A DNA stretch of 64,000 nt, taken from NCBI RefSeq assembly GCF_005405265.1, contig NZ_BJDS01000001.1, forward strand, positions 1 through 64,000. Direction: 5' to 3'. Shown here in pieces: positions 36,001-42,000 of the stretch (the first letter of the stretch is position 1; each line of letters begins with the position of its first letter). The position numbers were made by a program. The stretch comes from Enterococcus songbeiensis (GTDB lineage Bacteria > Bacillota > Bacilli > Lactobacillales > Enterococcaceae).

Positions 36001-39000
36001 TTTATGTTGACGCAAGGCTTCTTTATTTACCTCTGGAACCACTAGCGGTACTTCCGGGTCCATACGAAAATGACTGGTATTATCGACGACCACAGCACCA
36101 CGTTTTACTGCTTCCGGCGCAAAGATTTTCGAAATTCCGCCACCTGCACTAAACAGCGCAATATCAATACCCTCAAAAGATTCCGGCACTAATTCTTCCA
36201 CAGCCAGTTCCTTTCCCTTGAAGGTCAATATTTTTCCTGCTGAACGCTTGGAAGCCAATAATTTTACCTCCGCAAGCGGCAAAGTAGTCTGTTCTAACAT
36301 CTCGATCATTCTTGTGCCCACTGCACCTGTTGCGCCAACAACCGCAACCCGATATCCTGTACTCATACCTTCCATCTCCTCTTGGCAAGAAATTTTTGTC
36401 AAAATTTCAAGCGATTTTCCCGCCCATCCTTACCAAATCCATCATAAAGTAGAACGAGTCTCAAAAATTAACTTTTTGCCATTTTAGCACATTTTCCCAT
36501 TAATTACAGTAACAACCGTTGTAAAATTCTGAAAATGCTTTTTCACACGGAGGGCTTCGCAAATACTCGGCTCATTTTGCCTTCTCTCATTGAAAATCCG
36601 TCTTTTTTTTGGTATAGTTGCCACATTCTAATATCTGGAGGCTAACCACATGGCACGAGTAGAAAGTTTTGAATTAAATCATAATGAAGTAAAAGCACCG
36701 TATGTCCGCCTTGCCGGCAGTGAAACAAATAATAACACCCTGATCCAAAAATACGATTTGCGTTTTTTACAGCCAAATCAAGCCGCCTTGCCAACCGCCG
36801 CACTGCATACGCTGGAACATTTATTGGCAGTTAATTTGCGGGATTATTTGACAGGCGTAATCGATTTATCACCAATGGGTTGTCGAACAGGTTTTTATTT
36901 GATTCTTTGGGGTGAACATACTACCGAAGAAATTCGAGATGCGTTAGCCACTGTGTTGCAAAAACATGTCATCGAAACCGATGAAGTTCCGGCGGTCTCC
37001 CCAAAAGAATGCGGAAATTATCGGGATCATTCTCTTTTCAGCGCCAAAGAATATGCGATTCAAGTGTTGGATCAAGGTATTTCCAGCGATCCCTTTGAAC
37101 GCAAGCTATAAAAAAAGAACCAAGAATAGTTTGGAAGAGACTTCCACTATTCTTGGTTTTTCATTATAGATTATTTAACCATTCTCGCGCTGCTTGCAGC
37201 TCATCCATATTGATTTGATGACCAGTTTTTGTACGGGCAATCGTTACTTCTGCATTCCGTGTTTCAAAGGCTTGATCCAATTCATTAAAGGAGGCATCGC
37301 TAACGATCGGATCACCGTCTCCAAAAGAAAGCCAAACTTTTTTATCTGCCAAAGAAAATGTCTTTGTGTGGCGTTCCAAAGACATCGGATGGAAGAAAAT
37401 ACCTCTCGTCAAGTTGGTCTCTCGTTCCAAAAGGAGATGGGCAGCGATGTTGGCACCATTTGAATACCCCACTAATACCCAATCCTCGATAGGAATATTT
37501 TTTTCTTTGCTTAATTCTTTAATTTCTTCGTACAAGCGGTCTGCTTCTTCCTCCAGACTGTCAAAATCAAACTGATTTAAACCATTTCGTTTGAAAAAGC
37601 GATTCATTCCTTCTTCTTGTACTTCTCCTCGAAAGGATAATATCTTACAGGAACCATCTAAAAAACGAGCAATATCTACCAAAGAATATTCATCACCGCC
37701 AGTACCATGCAGCAGCAACAAATTTTTTCCGCCGGCTTCTCCCGCATCGAAATAATACTTCATTTTTCGTCCCACCTTTTTGCTTACTTATTGTAAGTGT
37801 AAGATACCATGAGACTTTTTTTCTGACAAGCAATCTGTTTTACCTAATTGAACTGACCATAACCAGAAAATTTTCCCAATGCGAAAAAGCCCTTTGTTCC
37901 ATCTTCTCGTGGTTGAACGCCCCATAAAAAACCATCGGCGATGCAAATATCGTTGATTTTTATCTTCTGCCCAACAGATAACAACGCAATCGTCGGACTT
38001 TTGCGGTCAGGCTTTTGTCGCAGATAAACAGCCGTTGTTAAGTTGAAAGTTTTCATGGGAAAATCCCCCTCTCCTTCCGTTGACGTCCCAAAAAAGTACG
38101 AAAGCGTTTTTCGATGCAACCGATTCAGATCCAGCGGTCCTTCATATCCCGACAGTCGTCCTGCTGAAGTGTACTGATGCAGGTCATAATCAGTCGTTGC
38201 CGTTGGATTGCTGCCGGTATAAACTCCGGAGTTAGCACCATAAGTGGGCAGCCAGATACCATCAAAAGCGGTGACGTCCAAATTCAACTGTTTGTACAGG
38301 TGATTGGCAATATACACGCCAACTTTTTTCGCTCCTAATTTTTTCAACGTACGGCGGTATATTTCACACCCGCTGCGCATCTCTTTCATGGAAAATTCCT
38401 CCACGTCCAACCACCAAAAACTTGGCTGAAATTCTTTTCCCCGCAACCAAAAAAACTCCGCCTCTCGTGCCATATCGTTAAAATTAATTCCCCGTACCCA
38501 AGCATAAACTGCAAAGGGGATTCCACGTTTTTTGAACTCCTTAATATGGGTTTGATAGTGCTTGTCTACATAGGCACTGCCATATTGAATCCGAATAATC
38601 ACACCACCAATTTGCTTTGCCAAAAGATCATAATTGATGACAGCCGGGCGCTGCCATTCGCTAATATCAATAATCAGTGGTTTTGGTCGCATACTTTTCC
38701 TCCTCCCAAGTAAAAAAGAAGTGGGCAGTCGCCCACTTCTTCTCTTAAAATAATGGGGTCTCGGTTACTTCGACATATTTTGCACTTTCTACTGCAGCAA
38801 ACAATGCCACCCCGTCTTTTTCAAAAAGCGACAATTCCGTAATATCCTCCATCGCTTGTCGGACCTGTTCTCCTGTCAAATTTTCATCCGCCAATTTGGG
38901 AATTAGGTTATGTTTTTTACCTTCTGCATTTGCAAACGTCAAATATAATTTTTTCATCTATTTTTTCCTCCTATTTTGTGTGCTGTGTTGCTACTGTTTC

Positions 39001-42000
39001 AATAACACTCACAACGACAGCTGAATTTGGTGCCAGCTGATCCATAGCATCACCTAATGCCAGAATCTCTGTTTCTGACGGTACAGCAACCACATTTGCA
39101 AAACGCTGTTTGGTCAATTTTTCCTTGCCATCTTCTTGATACATAATCCCCAATTCCGTACTTACGTGTGTTTTCATTTTACTTCCTCCAATTCGTTGAT
39201 TTGTAAGTTGCGCCCCTTACACCTCTATAACGAAATTTTCGAGGCAAATGTAAAGCGATTTTTTTATTTTTTTGAAAAATTTTTTTAATTTCGGAAGAAA
39301 TCTTGATTTAACAGTCTTCTTTGAGAAGCCCGTAATTTTCTGCGGCAATGGTACCGCATTTGCCGAGTCATTGTTTCATCCTCCAATAATCGTGCAACTA
39401 ATTTTTGTTCCCCGCTGTCTAACGCTTGCCAAAAATCAATGGCCAATGTTCGGGCATCAATTCTCGAAAAAGTTTCCGGCAAATACGCAATCACCGTATC
39501 TCCTAACTTTTCTCTTTCTGCCTGTTTACGCTGTTTTCTGCGGATATCTGCCGCTTGCCAAACAAGCTTTTGAAACAACAACCCTTTAGGCCAGATTTCT
39601 TCAAAAGCTTGTTGCGTGGCAAAAGGCTCACTAAGCTTACAGCAAATCAACCGCAGTTCCTGCAAGTAATCATCAAAATCTGCTTGTCCTTCTGAAATTC
39701 CAGCTCGCCGCAAAATCTTCTCAAAAAAATCCTGATGAAGCAGCAACCACTCATTCAATTGTCCTCTCTCCATTTTATACATCCTTTATTTTCATTCCGG
39801 CCGGTACCTAAACTGTAACAAATTCATCTATCTACGTACTTTCGGAAATCCAACGAAAAAAATCGAAATAAAATAAAAAAAACTGAAAAACCTTTCGTAA
39901 TTATTTAAGGATTACTTTTTTTACAACTAATTAATCAAGGATGTGTTTATGTATGGAAAATTTTTCTTGTCTCAAAACAGGTGAACCAATCAACATTTCA
40001 CCGGAATTTATCACAGAGATTCCTCTTTCTTCGATCACAGAATATTGCCAGACCCGAATTTTTCAACCGGAAAATATTGCCTGTCTCTGTGAGAAAATCG
40101 AGCCGATTGCAACAATTCATCCCTATAAAGTTATTCACGCCCTTTTGCCGATTGCCCGGAAAGAGTGTTCCCACTCCTTGGTGCTGACTGCTGAGGATTT
40201 CCGGCAAGTGGCGGCTACACATAAAAAAATCACAGAGTCTTTGCTCCATGATCATTTACATATTCAACCACAACTGTATCGCTTTGCACTTGCTGCAGTC
40301 TTTGATCAGTGTAAATACAGATTGCCTTGTAGTTTGCCAAACTATTGCCTCATTCCTCTTGGGGGAGTGACAGAAAAAGATACGATATGGGTCAATCCGG
40401 CACAAATTGCTGCGATCAGTGAAGAACTCAACTGCACAGAATTGATTTTACGAAATGGGTTTCGAATCGCTTGTAAAATGTCCCGTCAAAGTATTCATAA
40501 CAGTATGTTACTGGGATTTCTTTGCCAAGGAATCATTAAACGGGAATGGCAATACGAATCCCTGCAAAGTAATCTGCCGCTGCAAGAATACCTGCATCTT
40601 CCCGGAACTCGCGAGATCAATCATGTAATTCAGAATCACCTCGTTGCTGACATTCCCGGCAAGCGTGGCGATTGGTTTCGCTCCTATTTTGACGAAAAGA
40701 AAATCGAAGTTATTCGTGCATTAACTGAAAAAGAAGAACGACTTTTGGAGAAAAATCGTTTATAAAAACAGCCCCAACCACGTTTACTTAAGGTGGTTGG
40801 GGCTGTTGGTTTAAATTGTAGCTGATAGTTTTTCTGTTACTTCACCATCAACACACTGCATGGTGCGTTATTCACGATATATTGGGTGGTTGATCCGGCT
40901 TTTTCTCGAGTGATGGAACCCATGCCTGTTGCCCCCACAATAATCAAATCCAAAGAATGAGCTTCCGGAATCGTTCGAGTGATGTAGACTTTTGGATTAC
41001 CGACTTCCACGATAGGCTCCACTTGCTCGATCCCGGCTTCTTTTGCATCATGGATTCGTTTCAGCATATCCATTTCCACTTTTTCTTGTTCTTCTTTCAA
41101 AATTTTCGTATAGGCGTAAGAACTGGTGGACAATTCTTCTTCATTGATAATTGCTGCGATAAAGAGTCTTGCTTGGTTGTAACTGGCAATTCTGATTGCT
41201 TCATCAAATGCGGCATCGGCATTTTTTGATCCGTCAATCGCTACTAGAATTTCATTGTATCCATTCATTGGAAACGCCTCCTTTTCTTCATTATACCATT
41301 GCGGGAACAAAGACAAAATAATTTAAGTTTGCGGATGCTTATCGTTTTAATCACTTGACTCATTCTTTGTACTCGAAAAAATTTAGTTGCTCTCCAATCA
41401 AAAAAAAACGAACCGTCAAATTAGCAGACGGTTCGTTGTTTTATCTCGGACTAATCCCGAGTGAAATTCGTCCAAATCGACTGATACGAGTCACTTTCCA
41501 CGCTGGTGACCACACAGTTTCAACAGTGACTTTTTCGATTCCATCAATTTCAGTTAATGCTATCCCAATTTCACTCGGAACGGTCGCCATACAGCCACAG
41601 CCCATCGAAGTATAGGTAAGAACTACATGACAATGCCCATTTTCCTCCAAATTAATTTCATAAACCAACCCTAAATTATAAATGTCCAACCCGATTTCCG
41701 GATCATATATGGTTTGAAGTTTCTCGATTAGCTGCTCACTCACTGTGGCTGCCAGATCATTCACTTGGATGTCATCTCTCATACTTTTGCCTCTTTTCCA
41801 ACTACCAAAAATAGTTTATGTGTATTTTTTCATAAAGCGTGGCTTTTTTCAAGGGGAATTATGAACTTTTTTTCATTTAAATCTAGAAAATTTCAAGTGT
41901 TGTGTTAAAATACAATTAGAATAAATAGATTTATTATTCAAGAGACAACAACTGGTTTGAAAGGAGTGTTCCAAAATGACTGACAATCAGCCAAAGAAAG

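Follow-up and report, generated by a model that had tools for sequence, protein, structure and literature searches.

Does the short sigma-like protein encoded beside a peptidoglycan hydrolase in Enterococcus songbeiensis serve that hydrolase, or does the pair belong to some other regulatory system? The question is posed by a module near the middle of the 64-kb stretch analysed here (contig NZ_BJDS01000001.1, positions 1 to 64,000 of the forward strand), which we call the window. Open reading frame (ORF) calling identified four consecutive ORFs on the minus strand between 37844 and 39782 and one divergent ORF on the plus strand, all five at the positions given by an initial annotation of this DNA: a GH25 lysozyme gene and two small ORFs with the coordinates listed in Table 1, a sigma-like ORF at 39285-39782 (minus strand), and the divergent ORF at 39941-40765 (plus strand). 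The module was compared with 20 related loci (19 from reference genomes and one Logan contig, L001), which come from Enterococcus spp., Tetragenococcus, an Enterococcaceae bacterium, Levilactobacillus, Weissella and Ruoffia. Exact protein matches assign the window to the E. massiliensis group of Enterococcus. From this comparison, the locus is probably the Enterococcus counterpart of the SigS circuit of Staphylococcus aureus, with all of its parts at one site and with one cargo gene, the lysozyme.

By homology and predicted fold, the protein encoded by the sigma-like gene is a member of the sigma-70 family with the two-domain architecture of extracytoplasmic function (ECF) sigma factors. The initial annotation had described it as a 165-aa protein with sigma-70 regions 2 and 4; the two-domain architecture stands, and the length does not, as the NCBI records place the start at 39773 and give a protein of 162 aa. 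Both this protein and the divergent one are annotated by NCBI as 'hypothetical protein'. A word-indexed homolog search returned only 2-9 relatives of the 162-aa protein, and an exhaustive HMMER search of 1.84 billion representatives returned 27, nearly all of which are 152-170 aa long. When 24 family members were scanned singly, 18 matched TIGR02937 (sigma70-ECF; best E-value 1e-12), and a few also matched Sigma70_r2, Sigma70_r4 or Sigma70_ECF. The AlphaFold (AF2) model built with the family alignment had a predicted local distance difference test (pLDDT) score of 87.6 overall and above 95 across the N-terminal 80 residues, compared to 62.5 for the poor single-sequence model. It is closest to ECF sigma factors, and the sigma2 domain (regions 2.1-2.4) is recognisable by sequence or fold; a comparison of the model to BFVD gave no match at E <= 1e-3. 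The 18 of 24 relatives that match TIGR02937, together with the confident fold, thus assign the protein to the sigma-70 family by transitive homology.

We further compared the family to individual sigma factors. Metagenome contigs supplied the S. aureus sigS locus (L035; also L041), which was located there by an exact match to a published cloning primer. The family profile matched S. aureus SigS at 35.4 bits (HMMER; E = 1.2e-7 at the size of the PDB database), and the hhalign comparison of the family with SigS gave 94.6% over 122 columns. The best of all PDB chains, which include many ECF sigma factors, reached 20.7 bits with the same profile. Among control sequences, which did not come from database records, Escherichia coli RpoE and Bacillus subtilis SigW each scored about 1 bit (hhalign 2.7% and 0.3%, respectively), and Streptococcus pneumoniae ComX scored 3.2 bits (hhalign 0.5%). 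Because the score of SigS lies far above those of RpoE, SigW, ComX and the PDB chains, the window protein is specifically SigS-like, and on these profile comparisons its family, which is small and for the most part unannotated, is a sigma-70 clade with a specific relationship to S. aureus SigS.

The two small proteins encoded downstream of the sigma gene point in the same direction. The initial annotation had guessed at DUF1659 and DUF2922, and both guesses were borne out above the Pfam cut-offs (Table 1); its further suggestion that the two are paralogs was rejected, with no match by BLASTP and an hhalign probability of 5.5%. The DUF2922 gene begins 13 nt after the DUF1659 stop codon and has its own Shine-Dalgarno (SD) sequence, so that the two form a tandem bicistron. 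A weak match to the NCBIfam SroA model connects the DUF1659 protein with SigS and sroAB: in S. aureus, SroA is a DUF1659 protein and SroB a DUF2922 protein, and, according to a preprint, the ECF-type SigS induces the DUF1659-DUF2922 bicistron sroAB about 1000-fold and transcribes sroAB in vitro, SroA and SroB bind each other, and SroA stabilises sigS mRNA. By sequence, the DUF1659 protein of the window is a member of the same Pfam family as SroA, not an equivalog of it. SigS is required for virulence and stress survival in S. aureus and is barely expressed in the laboratory, and no anti-sigma factor is known for it. The literature was also searched for ecfX, for SA1644 and for a promoter consensus of SigS, in each case with no result.

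The divergent gene supplies the third part of the comparison. The initial annotation had described its product as a Cys-rich cytoplasmic protein of 270 aa without a transmembrane (TM) segment, standing where an anti-sigma factor might be expected. The composition (13 Cys, 4.7%) and the absence of a TM segment hold, whereas the anti-sigma role does not, and the protein is ComK-like instead. An identity as an anti-sigma factor of the zinc-associated anti-sigma (ZAS) type was rejected: the HxxxCxxC motif is absent, no Cys position is conserved in more than 5 of the 12 members of the protein's family (P274), and there is no TM segment. Eight of the 12 P274-family members match Pfam ComK, with a best E-value of 1.3e-4, and no other family recurs. 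In hhalign, the P274 family aligned with S. aureus ComK2/SACOL1828 at E = 5.7e-4, with 29% probability over the conserved core Y.L.PL....TIW.NP..I, and its alignment with a B. subtilis ComK sequence, like the other controls not from a database record, was colinear over 125 columns at a probability of only 6.9%.

In S. aureus, SACOL1828 sits 112 bp downstream of sigS (L035 3403-3846; also L041 1956-2410) and matches Pfam ComK at 36.2 bits, above the cut-off of 22.3. The SigS paper of 2008 described SACOL1828 as a cytoplasmic protein without homologs that did not behave as an anti-sigma factor. The published primers for deletion of comK2 flank exactly the SACOL1828 ORF, which identifies SACOL1828 as comK2; the ComK2 literature found here does not mention sigS. 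By this primer match, comK2 is the gene adjoining sigS in S. aureus, and the pairing of a SigS-type sigma gene with a ComK-family gene is conserved to the extent that the divergent window protein is, as its family profile suggests, a probable ComK2-like partner and the counterpart of S. aureus ComK2. A ComK-like divergent gene adjoins the sigma gene in 10 Enterococcaceae loci.

The window module and the S. aureus SigS system thus share a short sigma factor that consists of sigma2 and sigma4 only and has specific sequence similarity between the two; a DUF1659-DUF2922 bicistron, the target in S. aureus, with a short spacer and its own SD; the lack of a membrane anti-sigma factor; and a cytoplasmic protein encoded beside the sigma gene, which is a ComK-family member in S. 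aureus and probably ComK-like in the window. They differ in that the small-protein operon is immediately 3' of the sigma gene in the window and at a distant locus in S. aureus, and in that the window's ComK-like gene is transcribed divergently and has almost double the length of S. aureus comK2 (270 vs. 147 aa). Compared to SigS, the window sigma also lacks the first helix of the region-4 helix-turn-helix (HTH), and the identity between the two is only about 17-20%; the window DUF1659 protein fails the SroA equivalog cut-off; and an endolysin-type GH25 gene is attached behind a terminator in the window only. Separately, a membrane-anchored GH73 N-acetylglucosaminidase is encoded two genes upstream of sigS in S. 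aureus (L035 1267-2154, minus strand; Pfam Glucosaminidase, 2.3e-13), which makes a second wall hydrolase encoded close to a sigma gene of the SigS type; this may be coincidence.

Table 1. Features of the sigma module in the window (positions of the 64-kb stretch; a dot marks a feature without strand)
Feature	Position	Strand	Basis or detail
Endolysin-type GH25 muramidase, 282 aa, SH3b-like C-terminal domain	37844..38692	-	Pfam, PHROG
Intrinsic terminator between the DUF2922 gene and the GH25 SD	38712..38740	-	folding
DUF2922 protein, 70 aa, SroB-like	38745..38957	-	Pfam 74.1 bits vs. cut-off 25.5, E 8.2e-21
DUF1659 protein, 68 aa, SroA-like	38971..39177	-	Pfam 27.7 bits vs. cut-off 24.1, E 2.5e-6
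Promoter-like element and leader of the DUF1659 operon	39203..39254	-	conserved composite motif
Parts of this element: TTTACA, 16 nt, CGTTATAG, then GTAAGG..CTTAC hairpin	39249-39254 (TTTACA); 39225-39232 (CGTTATAG); 39203-39222 (hairpin)	-	
SigS-like sigma-70-family factor, 162 aa, sigma2 and sigma4 domains only	39285..39773	-	homologs and predicted fold
Palindrome TACCGGCCGGAA, candidate operator	39795..39806	.	downstream of the sigmaA-like -10, ahead of the sigma SD
ComK-like protein, 270 aa by the NCBI start (274-aa ORF from 39941)	39953..40765	+	sub-threshold ComK match, family, synteny

We next consider the DNA through which such a sigma factor would act. The initial annotation had pointed to 39178-39284 and to the region upstream of the GH25 gene as places for an ECF-type motif; a CGT-containing motif was identified in the former and no copy in the latter. 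Its general form upstream of DUF1659, (T/G)GACA-N16-CGTT(N)ATAG-N2-GTGTAAGG-loop-CTTAC, is present in every locus that bears the DUF1659-DUF2922 pair. The core pattern GACA-N16-CGTTA.TAG with the GTAAG..CTTAC hairpin occurs once in the 64-kb window, where 0 copies are expected, and the composite motif occurs once in each of the 8 loci with the pair, always directly upstream of DUF1659, and in 0 of the 12 other loci. The taxa that carry it are Enterococcus, an Enterococcaceae bacterium and Levilactobacillus. The spacing from GACA to CGTT is exactly 16 nt in 6 of 7 lineages; the stem sequence is conserved apart from L012, which has the compensatory stem GCAAG/CTTGC; and in L003, L006 and L010 the -35-like TGACA overlaps the sigma stop codon. 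Autoregulatory or further regulon copies were not found (the matches in Weissella fall within a coding region), and none is present at sigS in S. aureus.

In its spacing and CGT core, this motif resembles ECF promoters and fits sigmaA poorly, any -10 hexamer with a spacing of 17-18 nt having T as its second base. The canonical ECF/anti-sigma pairs SigW-RsiW and RpoE-RseA share with the module the two-domain sigma2-sigma4 protein, a CGT-containing -10-like element and a 16-nt spacer, the comparison of the promoter being with that of SigW. Unlike these pairs, the module has no anti-sigma gene, TM protein or ZAS motif, its -35-like box is GACA and not AAC, and its sigma family profile gives only about 1 bit for RpoE and SigW.

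A second element lies upstream of the sigma gene itself. The palindrome TACCGGCCGGAA has a single copy in the window. Counted from the start codon of the sigma gene, 13 of 13 Enterococcaceae loci have a perfect 8-bp CC-NNNN-GG palindrome at -31 to -35, with centres in four self-complementary versions (GGCC, GCGC, TCGA and CGCG). A 14-bp palindrome, CCATAGCGCTATGG, occupies the equivalent place in Levilactobacillus (L020), and in S. aureus TCCGGA is found about 35 nt upstream of sigS. Neither the DUF1659 leader hairpin (z = -0.8) nor the sigma-upstream palindrome (z = +0.6) is unusually stable as RNA, and both were therefore treated as DNA-level or protein-binding elements; the CC-NNNN-GG palindrome is interpreted as a candidate operator for a dimeric regulator. 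Another palindrome, CTTAC-AATAA-GTAAG (37783-37797, minus strand), lies between the GH25 and alpha/beta-hydrolase genes, just downstream of a sigmaA-like promoter (TTGTCA-17-TATCTT); its arms are the 5-mers of the DUF1659 leader hairpin (GTAAG..CTTAC) in swapped order.

The gene order across the related loci bears directly on the role of the hydrolase. The DUF1659-DUF2922 pair is located directly 3' of the sigma gene in 8 of the 20 loci, in two bacterial families and including three Levilactobacillus species. A GH25 gene downstream of the pair was found only in the window, L001, L003, L006 and L010, which form one Enterococcus subclade; L012, L013, L014 and L020 have the sigma gene and the pair without GH25, and L004, L005, L007, L008 and L011 have the sigma gene with neither. 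In E. gallinarum, an ABC transporter takes the place of the pair downstream of the sigma gene. In E. aquimarinus (L003), the four-gene unit is located between sucrose phosphotransferase system genes and LCP/glycosyltransferase genes, and no ComK-like gene is present. The confinement of GH25 to one subclade indicates that the lysozyme is accessory cargo and not the conserved target.

These distributions speak against the proposal of the initial annotation that the locus is an autolysis, fratricide or wall-remodelling module, in which an ECF sigma factor is dedicated to a peptidoglycan hydrolase, GH25 is the main output and the small proteins are accessory. Several observations are compatible with it: GH25 is read in the same direction as the DUF pair without space for its own promoter, the four-gene unit recurs in four Enterococcus lineages, in one of them at a different chromosomal site, the enzyme retains its catalytic residues, and S. 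aureus sigS mutants are reported to be sensitive to cell-wall antibiotics. However, the sigma gene occurs outside one subclade with the DUF pair alone or with neither, the conserved partners being the pair and the ComK-like gene; the conserved promoter-like element precedes DUF1659 and not GH25; a strong terminator divides GH25 from the genes that would be highly expressed; and no wall hydrolase has been reported among the genes induced by SigS in S. aureus. We therefore regard a dedicated hydrolase module as unlikely.

Sigma factors that drive lysis or release genes are known from other systems, such as Xpf of PBSX, the clostridial TcdR/UviA/BotR group, and ComX, which drives the CbpD/LytA fratricide genes of S. 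pneumoniae. These share with the window module the logic of a small, divergent, stress-switched sigma factor and a wall hydrolase without a secretion signal. They have no significant sequence relation to it (3 bits for ComX, and weak BotR matches in a few members), and the module has neither a holin nor a toxin or bacteriocin, nor is the hydrolase what is conserved as its target.

The hairpin that precedes the lysozyme gene bears on whether this gene belongs to the operon. This hairpin, AGAAGTGGGC-GACT-GCCCACTTCT followed by T6, has a 10-bp GC-rich stem and a folding energy of -23.3 kcal/mol (z = -5.6, with 0 of 200 shuffled sequences as stable). A consensus terminator scan did not list it, and it was verified by folding; the initial description of a strong terminator with a 10-bp stem and U6 directly before the GH25 SD is accurate, and the structure ends about 20 nt ahead of the start codon. 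At the same position, L003 and L010 have U-tract hairpins (z of about -6) with sequences unrelated to that of the window, whereas L006 has no hairpin and a DUF2922-GH25 spacer of only 19 nt. As position and function are kept and sequence is not, these terminators probably lower the expression of the lysozyme relative to that of the small proteins. In E. aquimarinus, the DUF2922-GH25 spacer (L003 5993-6120) also contains two copies of a direct repeat, TATATAAGTATATAAGTATAAGAAGAAAAA, ahead of the terminator-like hairpin.

A strong, canonical hairpin of this kind could instead end the sigma-dependent operon, in which case GH25 would be merely a neighbour that is expressed independently or silent. 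We consider this quite improbable, given that the U-tract and the start codon lie only about 20 nt apart, a stretch that contains the SD and leaves no space for a GH25 promoter, the 3' part of the DUF2922 gene yielded no sigmaA-like promoter, L006 lacks the terminator, and four lineages retain the gene order, in two genomic contexts. The earlier placement of the lysozyme in the same transcription unit, behind the terminator, is supported by the same observations.

The lysozyme, named 'GH25 family lysozyme' by NCBI, matches Pfam Glyco_hydro_25 at 64.6 bits (E = 1.9e-17; cut-off 27), PHROG endolysin at 3.2e-43 and PHROG endolysin tails at 8e-4. Its GH25 catalytic residues are present (D9, D96-V-E98, that is, D96-x-E98, and QY173), and with a maximum hydropathy of 1.11 it has neither a TM segment nor a signal peptide. 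Alignments with the muramidase lysins of Bacillus phages cover about 95% of the protein at 33-36% identity; the highest identity to any phage protein, 49%, is that between the catalytic domain and an endolysin from a Geobacillus phage. Of the earlier description as a GH25 muramidase with an SH3b-like tail, the enzyme is confirmed, and the tail, which is below threshold (SH3_5 15.8 bits, cut-off 22; SH3_3 12.6 bits), is plausible from the full-length alignment with phage lysins, which extends through residue 276. The Bacillus phage lysins BC-5, BCU4 and Bcp1 likewise combine GH25 with an SH3b-like tail and no signal peptide; unlike them, the window enzyme is encoded by a chromosomal gene with no holin or phage genes nearby, embedded in a host operon that we propose to be sigma-dependent.

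The sigma4 domain raises a different doubt. In the window protein and its relatives of the Enterococcus clade, a gap of 8-10 residues deletes the first helix of the region-4.2 HTH, and the truncated form is conserved across many Enterococcus species. The HTH is complete (e.g., GYKQFEIAEIM-SLSLSTIK) in S. aureus SigS and in the relatives from Levilactobacillus and Ruoffia and two metagenomic ones (L020, L016, P0022 and P0028). This gap accounts for the three helices, instead of four, in the C-terminal domain of the AF2 model. The basic recognition helix, (L)SRQ.R..YR..LR, is kept in the truncated forms. The 162-aa protein might thus no longer be a working initiation factor, but a decoy or regulator that binds RNA polymerase, or a factor dependent on a partner, with the operon read by another holoenzyme. 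The deletion, the three-helix model and the lack of a direct sigma HMM match fit this possibility. It is made doubtful by the conservation of the truncated form and of its recognition-helix motif across so many species, by the presence of the same GACA box and element before DUF1659 in the truncated-sigma4 and full-sigma4 clades alike, and by the poor fit of this motif to a sigmaA promoter. A partial match is also seen in S. pneumoniae ComX, a proven sigma factor, whose sequence as used here matches TIGR02937 only at positions 4-129 of 165; that this sequence is sigma-like was checked solely by this match. We accordingly assign a low probability to a non-working sigma.

An observation on strain variation touches both the sigma protein and its divergent neighbour. 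The window is 99-100% identical to L001 from 29285 to about 39600, after which identity falls abruptly to 67-77%. The diverged stretch (39600-40800 of the window; L001 88-1250) comprises the N-terminal ~60 sigma codons, the divergent promoter region and the whole ComK-like gene. The abrupt drop places a recombination breakpoint inside the sigma gene, and the alignment indicates that the N-terminus of sigma2 and the ComK-like protein were exchanged jointly as one cassette. A more far-reaching reading draws on this joint exchange of the N-terminal third of sigma and the ComK-like gene between near-identical strains. It takes the HTH-truncated sigma and its co-diverging ComK-like neighbour as a two-protein initiation system, in which the latter would supply or gate recognition of the upstream DNA, and which would trigger the holin-less endolysin by programmed read-through, resulting in stress-induced altruistic lysis. 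We regard this as a speculative reading with little probability.

It is very unlikely that the locus is the remnant of a prophage or a phage-like lysis cassette, with a late-gene sigma factor of phage origin acting on genes for small phage proteins and an endolysin, by analogy with PBSX Xpf and the clostridial TcdR/UviA-type systems. The lysin architecture shared with Bacillus phages, the PHROG endolysin match (3e-43), the missing signal peptide, and weak matches of some family members and of SigS itself to the BotR model agree with such an origin. It was rejected on the following grounds: tblastn searches of 50,697 phage records returned no match for sigma, DUF2922 or P274; sigma had no match in 72,556 plasmids; the sigma model had none in BFVD at E <= 1e-3; and no holin, integrase, terminase or structural phage gene is present within about 12 kb, as the initial annotation had found within its narrower view, nor is there a small TM protein among the five. 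No phage protein exceeds 49% identity to GH25, and the GC (guanine plus cytosine) content of the module, 0.40-0.41, is unremarkable. As GH25 is phage-like while sigma, DUF2922 and the ComK-like protein have no phage match, the simplest reading of these searches is the capture of one endolysin gene into a host operon.

Scarcely tenable, finally, is a ComX/SigH-type competence sigma working with a ComK-like regulator, which the small, highly divergent sigma beside a ComK-like gene and the cooperation of SigH and ComK proteins in S. aureus competence might suggest: ComX identity was rejected on its scores (3.2 bits and 0.5% in hhalign, where SigS reaches 35 bits and 94.6%), the module has no competence genes beside it, S. 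aureus does not require ComK2, the ComK paralog that adjoins sigS, for its transformation genes, and it is the SroAB-like pair that is conserved as the target.

Set against the assignment to a SigS-type circuit are several observations. The 162-aa protein itself has no sigma match in Pfam or NCBIfam even at E <= 1, and scans of PHROGs and of PDB sequences with it were likewise empty; the significant sigma-70 HMM match that the initial annotation had made its test is thus absent, and it is the relatives and the fold that carry the assignment. With the first HTH helix missing from sigma4 in both alignment and model, normal -35 recognition is not assured. The sequences of RpoE, SigW, ComK and ComX were not drawn from database records, which leaves the PDB search as the independent control for the specificity of the SigS match. 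For the divergent protein, the Pfam ComK match (PF06338) is 15.1 bits (E = 0.02), below the cut-off of 22.3, and the comparison of P274 with ComK2 gives 17 bits and an hhalign probability of only 29%. The DUF1659 protein scores 17.1 bits (E = 0.0039) with the NCBIfam model SigS_reg_SroA (NF049869), for which the cut-off is 80. The promoter-like motif is a putative target of the sigma factor, proposed from sequence comparison among the 20 loci and with the S. aureus sigS locus, and it precedes neither the sigma gene nor GH25. Finally, the terminator looks strong, and read-through into GH25 could be negligible.

Under the SigS-type reading, which we nevertheless favour, the sigma factor would recognise GACA-N16-CGTTA and strongly transcribe the SroA/SroB-like pair. 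A minority of transcripts would read through the terminator, such that the muramidase would be made at a low level and only when sigma is active. The small proteins may bind each other and feed back on sigma, as their counterparts do in S. aureus, and the ComK-like protein and the palindrome may control the expression or activity of sigma. More speculatively, the muramidase could be a domesticated phage endolysin that, without a holin, reaches the wall only upon membrane damage or lysis, and it might contribute to stress-linked autolysis or wall turnover.

The surroundings of the module are ordinary. It is flanked by chromosomal genes of the housekeeping type that encode an alpha/beta-hydrolase, LuxS, Asd, an ABC-F protein, RNase J and Usp and, further, an Fe-S assembly protein, IlvD, a TetR regulator and a sortase. 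None of the five module proteins has a TM segment, a signal peptide or an HxxxCxxC motif, in agreement with the earlier statement that a membrane anti-sigma factor is absent. The RNase J gene (31160-32902, minus strand) is about 6 kb from the module, which deserves remark only in view of the reported stabilisation of S. aureus sigS mRNA by SroA; the nearness is probably coincidental. Between the convergent ComK-like and Usp genes, a hairpin forms on both strands at 40762-40814, probably a bidirectional terminator; it has sub-threshold 'miRNA' matches in Rfam, and the Rfam scan as a whole returned only sub-threshold noise. Towards the right end of the window (50000-64000), GC content drops from about 0.41-0.45 to 0.28-0.37, and a sortase and a DUF285/SpaA surface-protein gene are found at 45.7-49.6 kb; the right end may be an acquired island.

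The locus is not categorically new: it is a compact, unannotated circuit of the SigS-SroAB-ComK2 type, with a truncated sigma4 HTH and an endolysin cargo behind a terminator. Within about 3 kb it holds the whole circuit, with a sigma factor, a ComK2-like partner, a candidate promoter, an SroA/SroB-like pair and an output that can be measured, the muramidase. It proposes a function for two 'hypothetical' Enterococcus proteins, and it provides a testable promoter model (GACA-N16-CGTTA with a 5' hairpin) that is transferable to S. aureus. The truncated sigma4 HTH and the intra-operon terminator before the endolysin add mechanistic questions of their own. SigS is medically relevant and cryptic, and its main target is the two-gene operon sroAB; the Enterococcus locus is more tractable. 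The comparison links the literatures on SigS and on ComK2, which in the work found here do not cite each other, and, if the reading as a two-protein initiation system were true, SigS and ComK2 of S. aureus, which have been studied by separate groups, would be one system.

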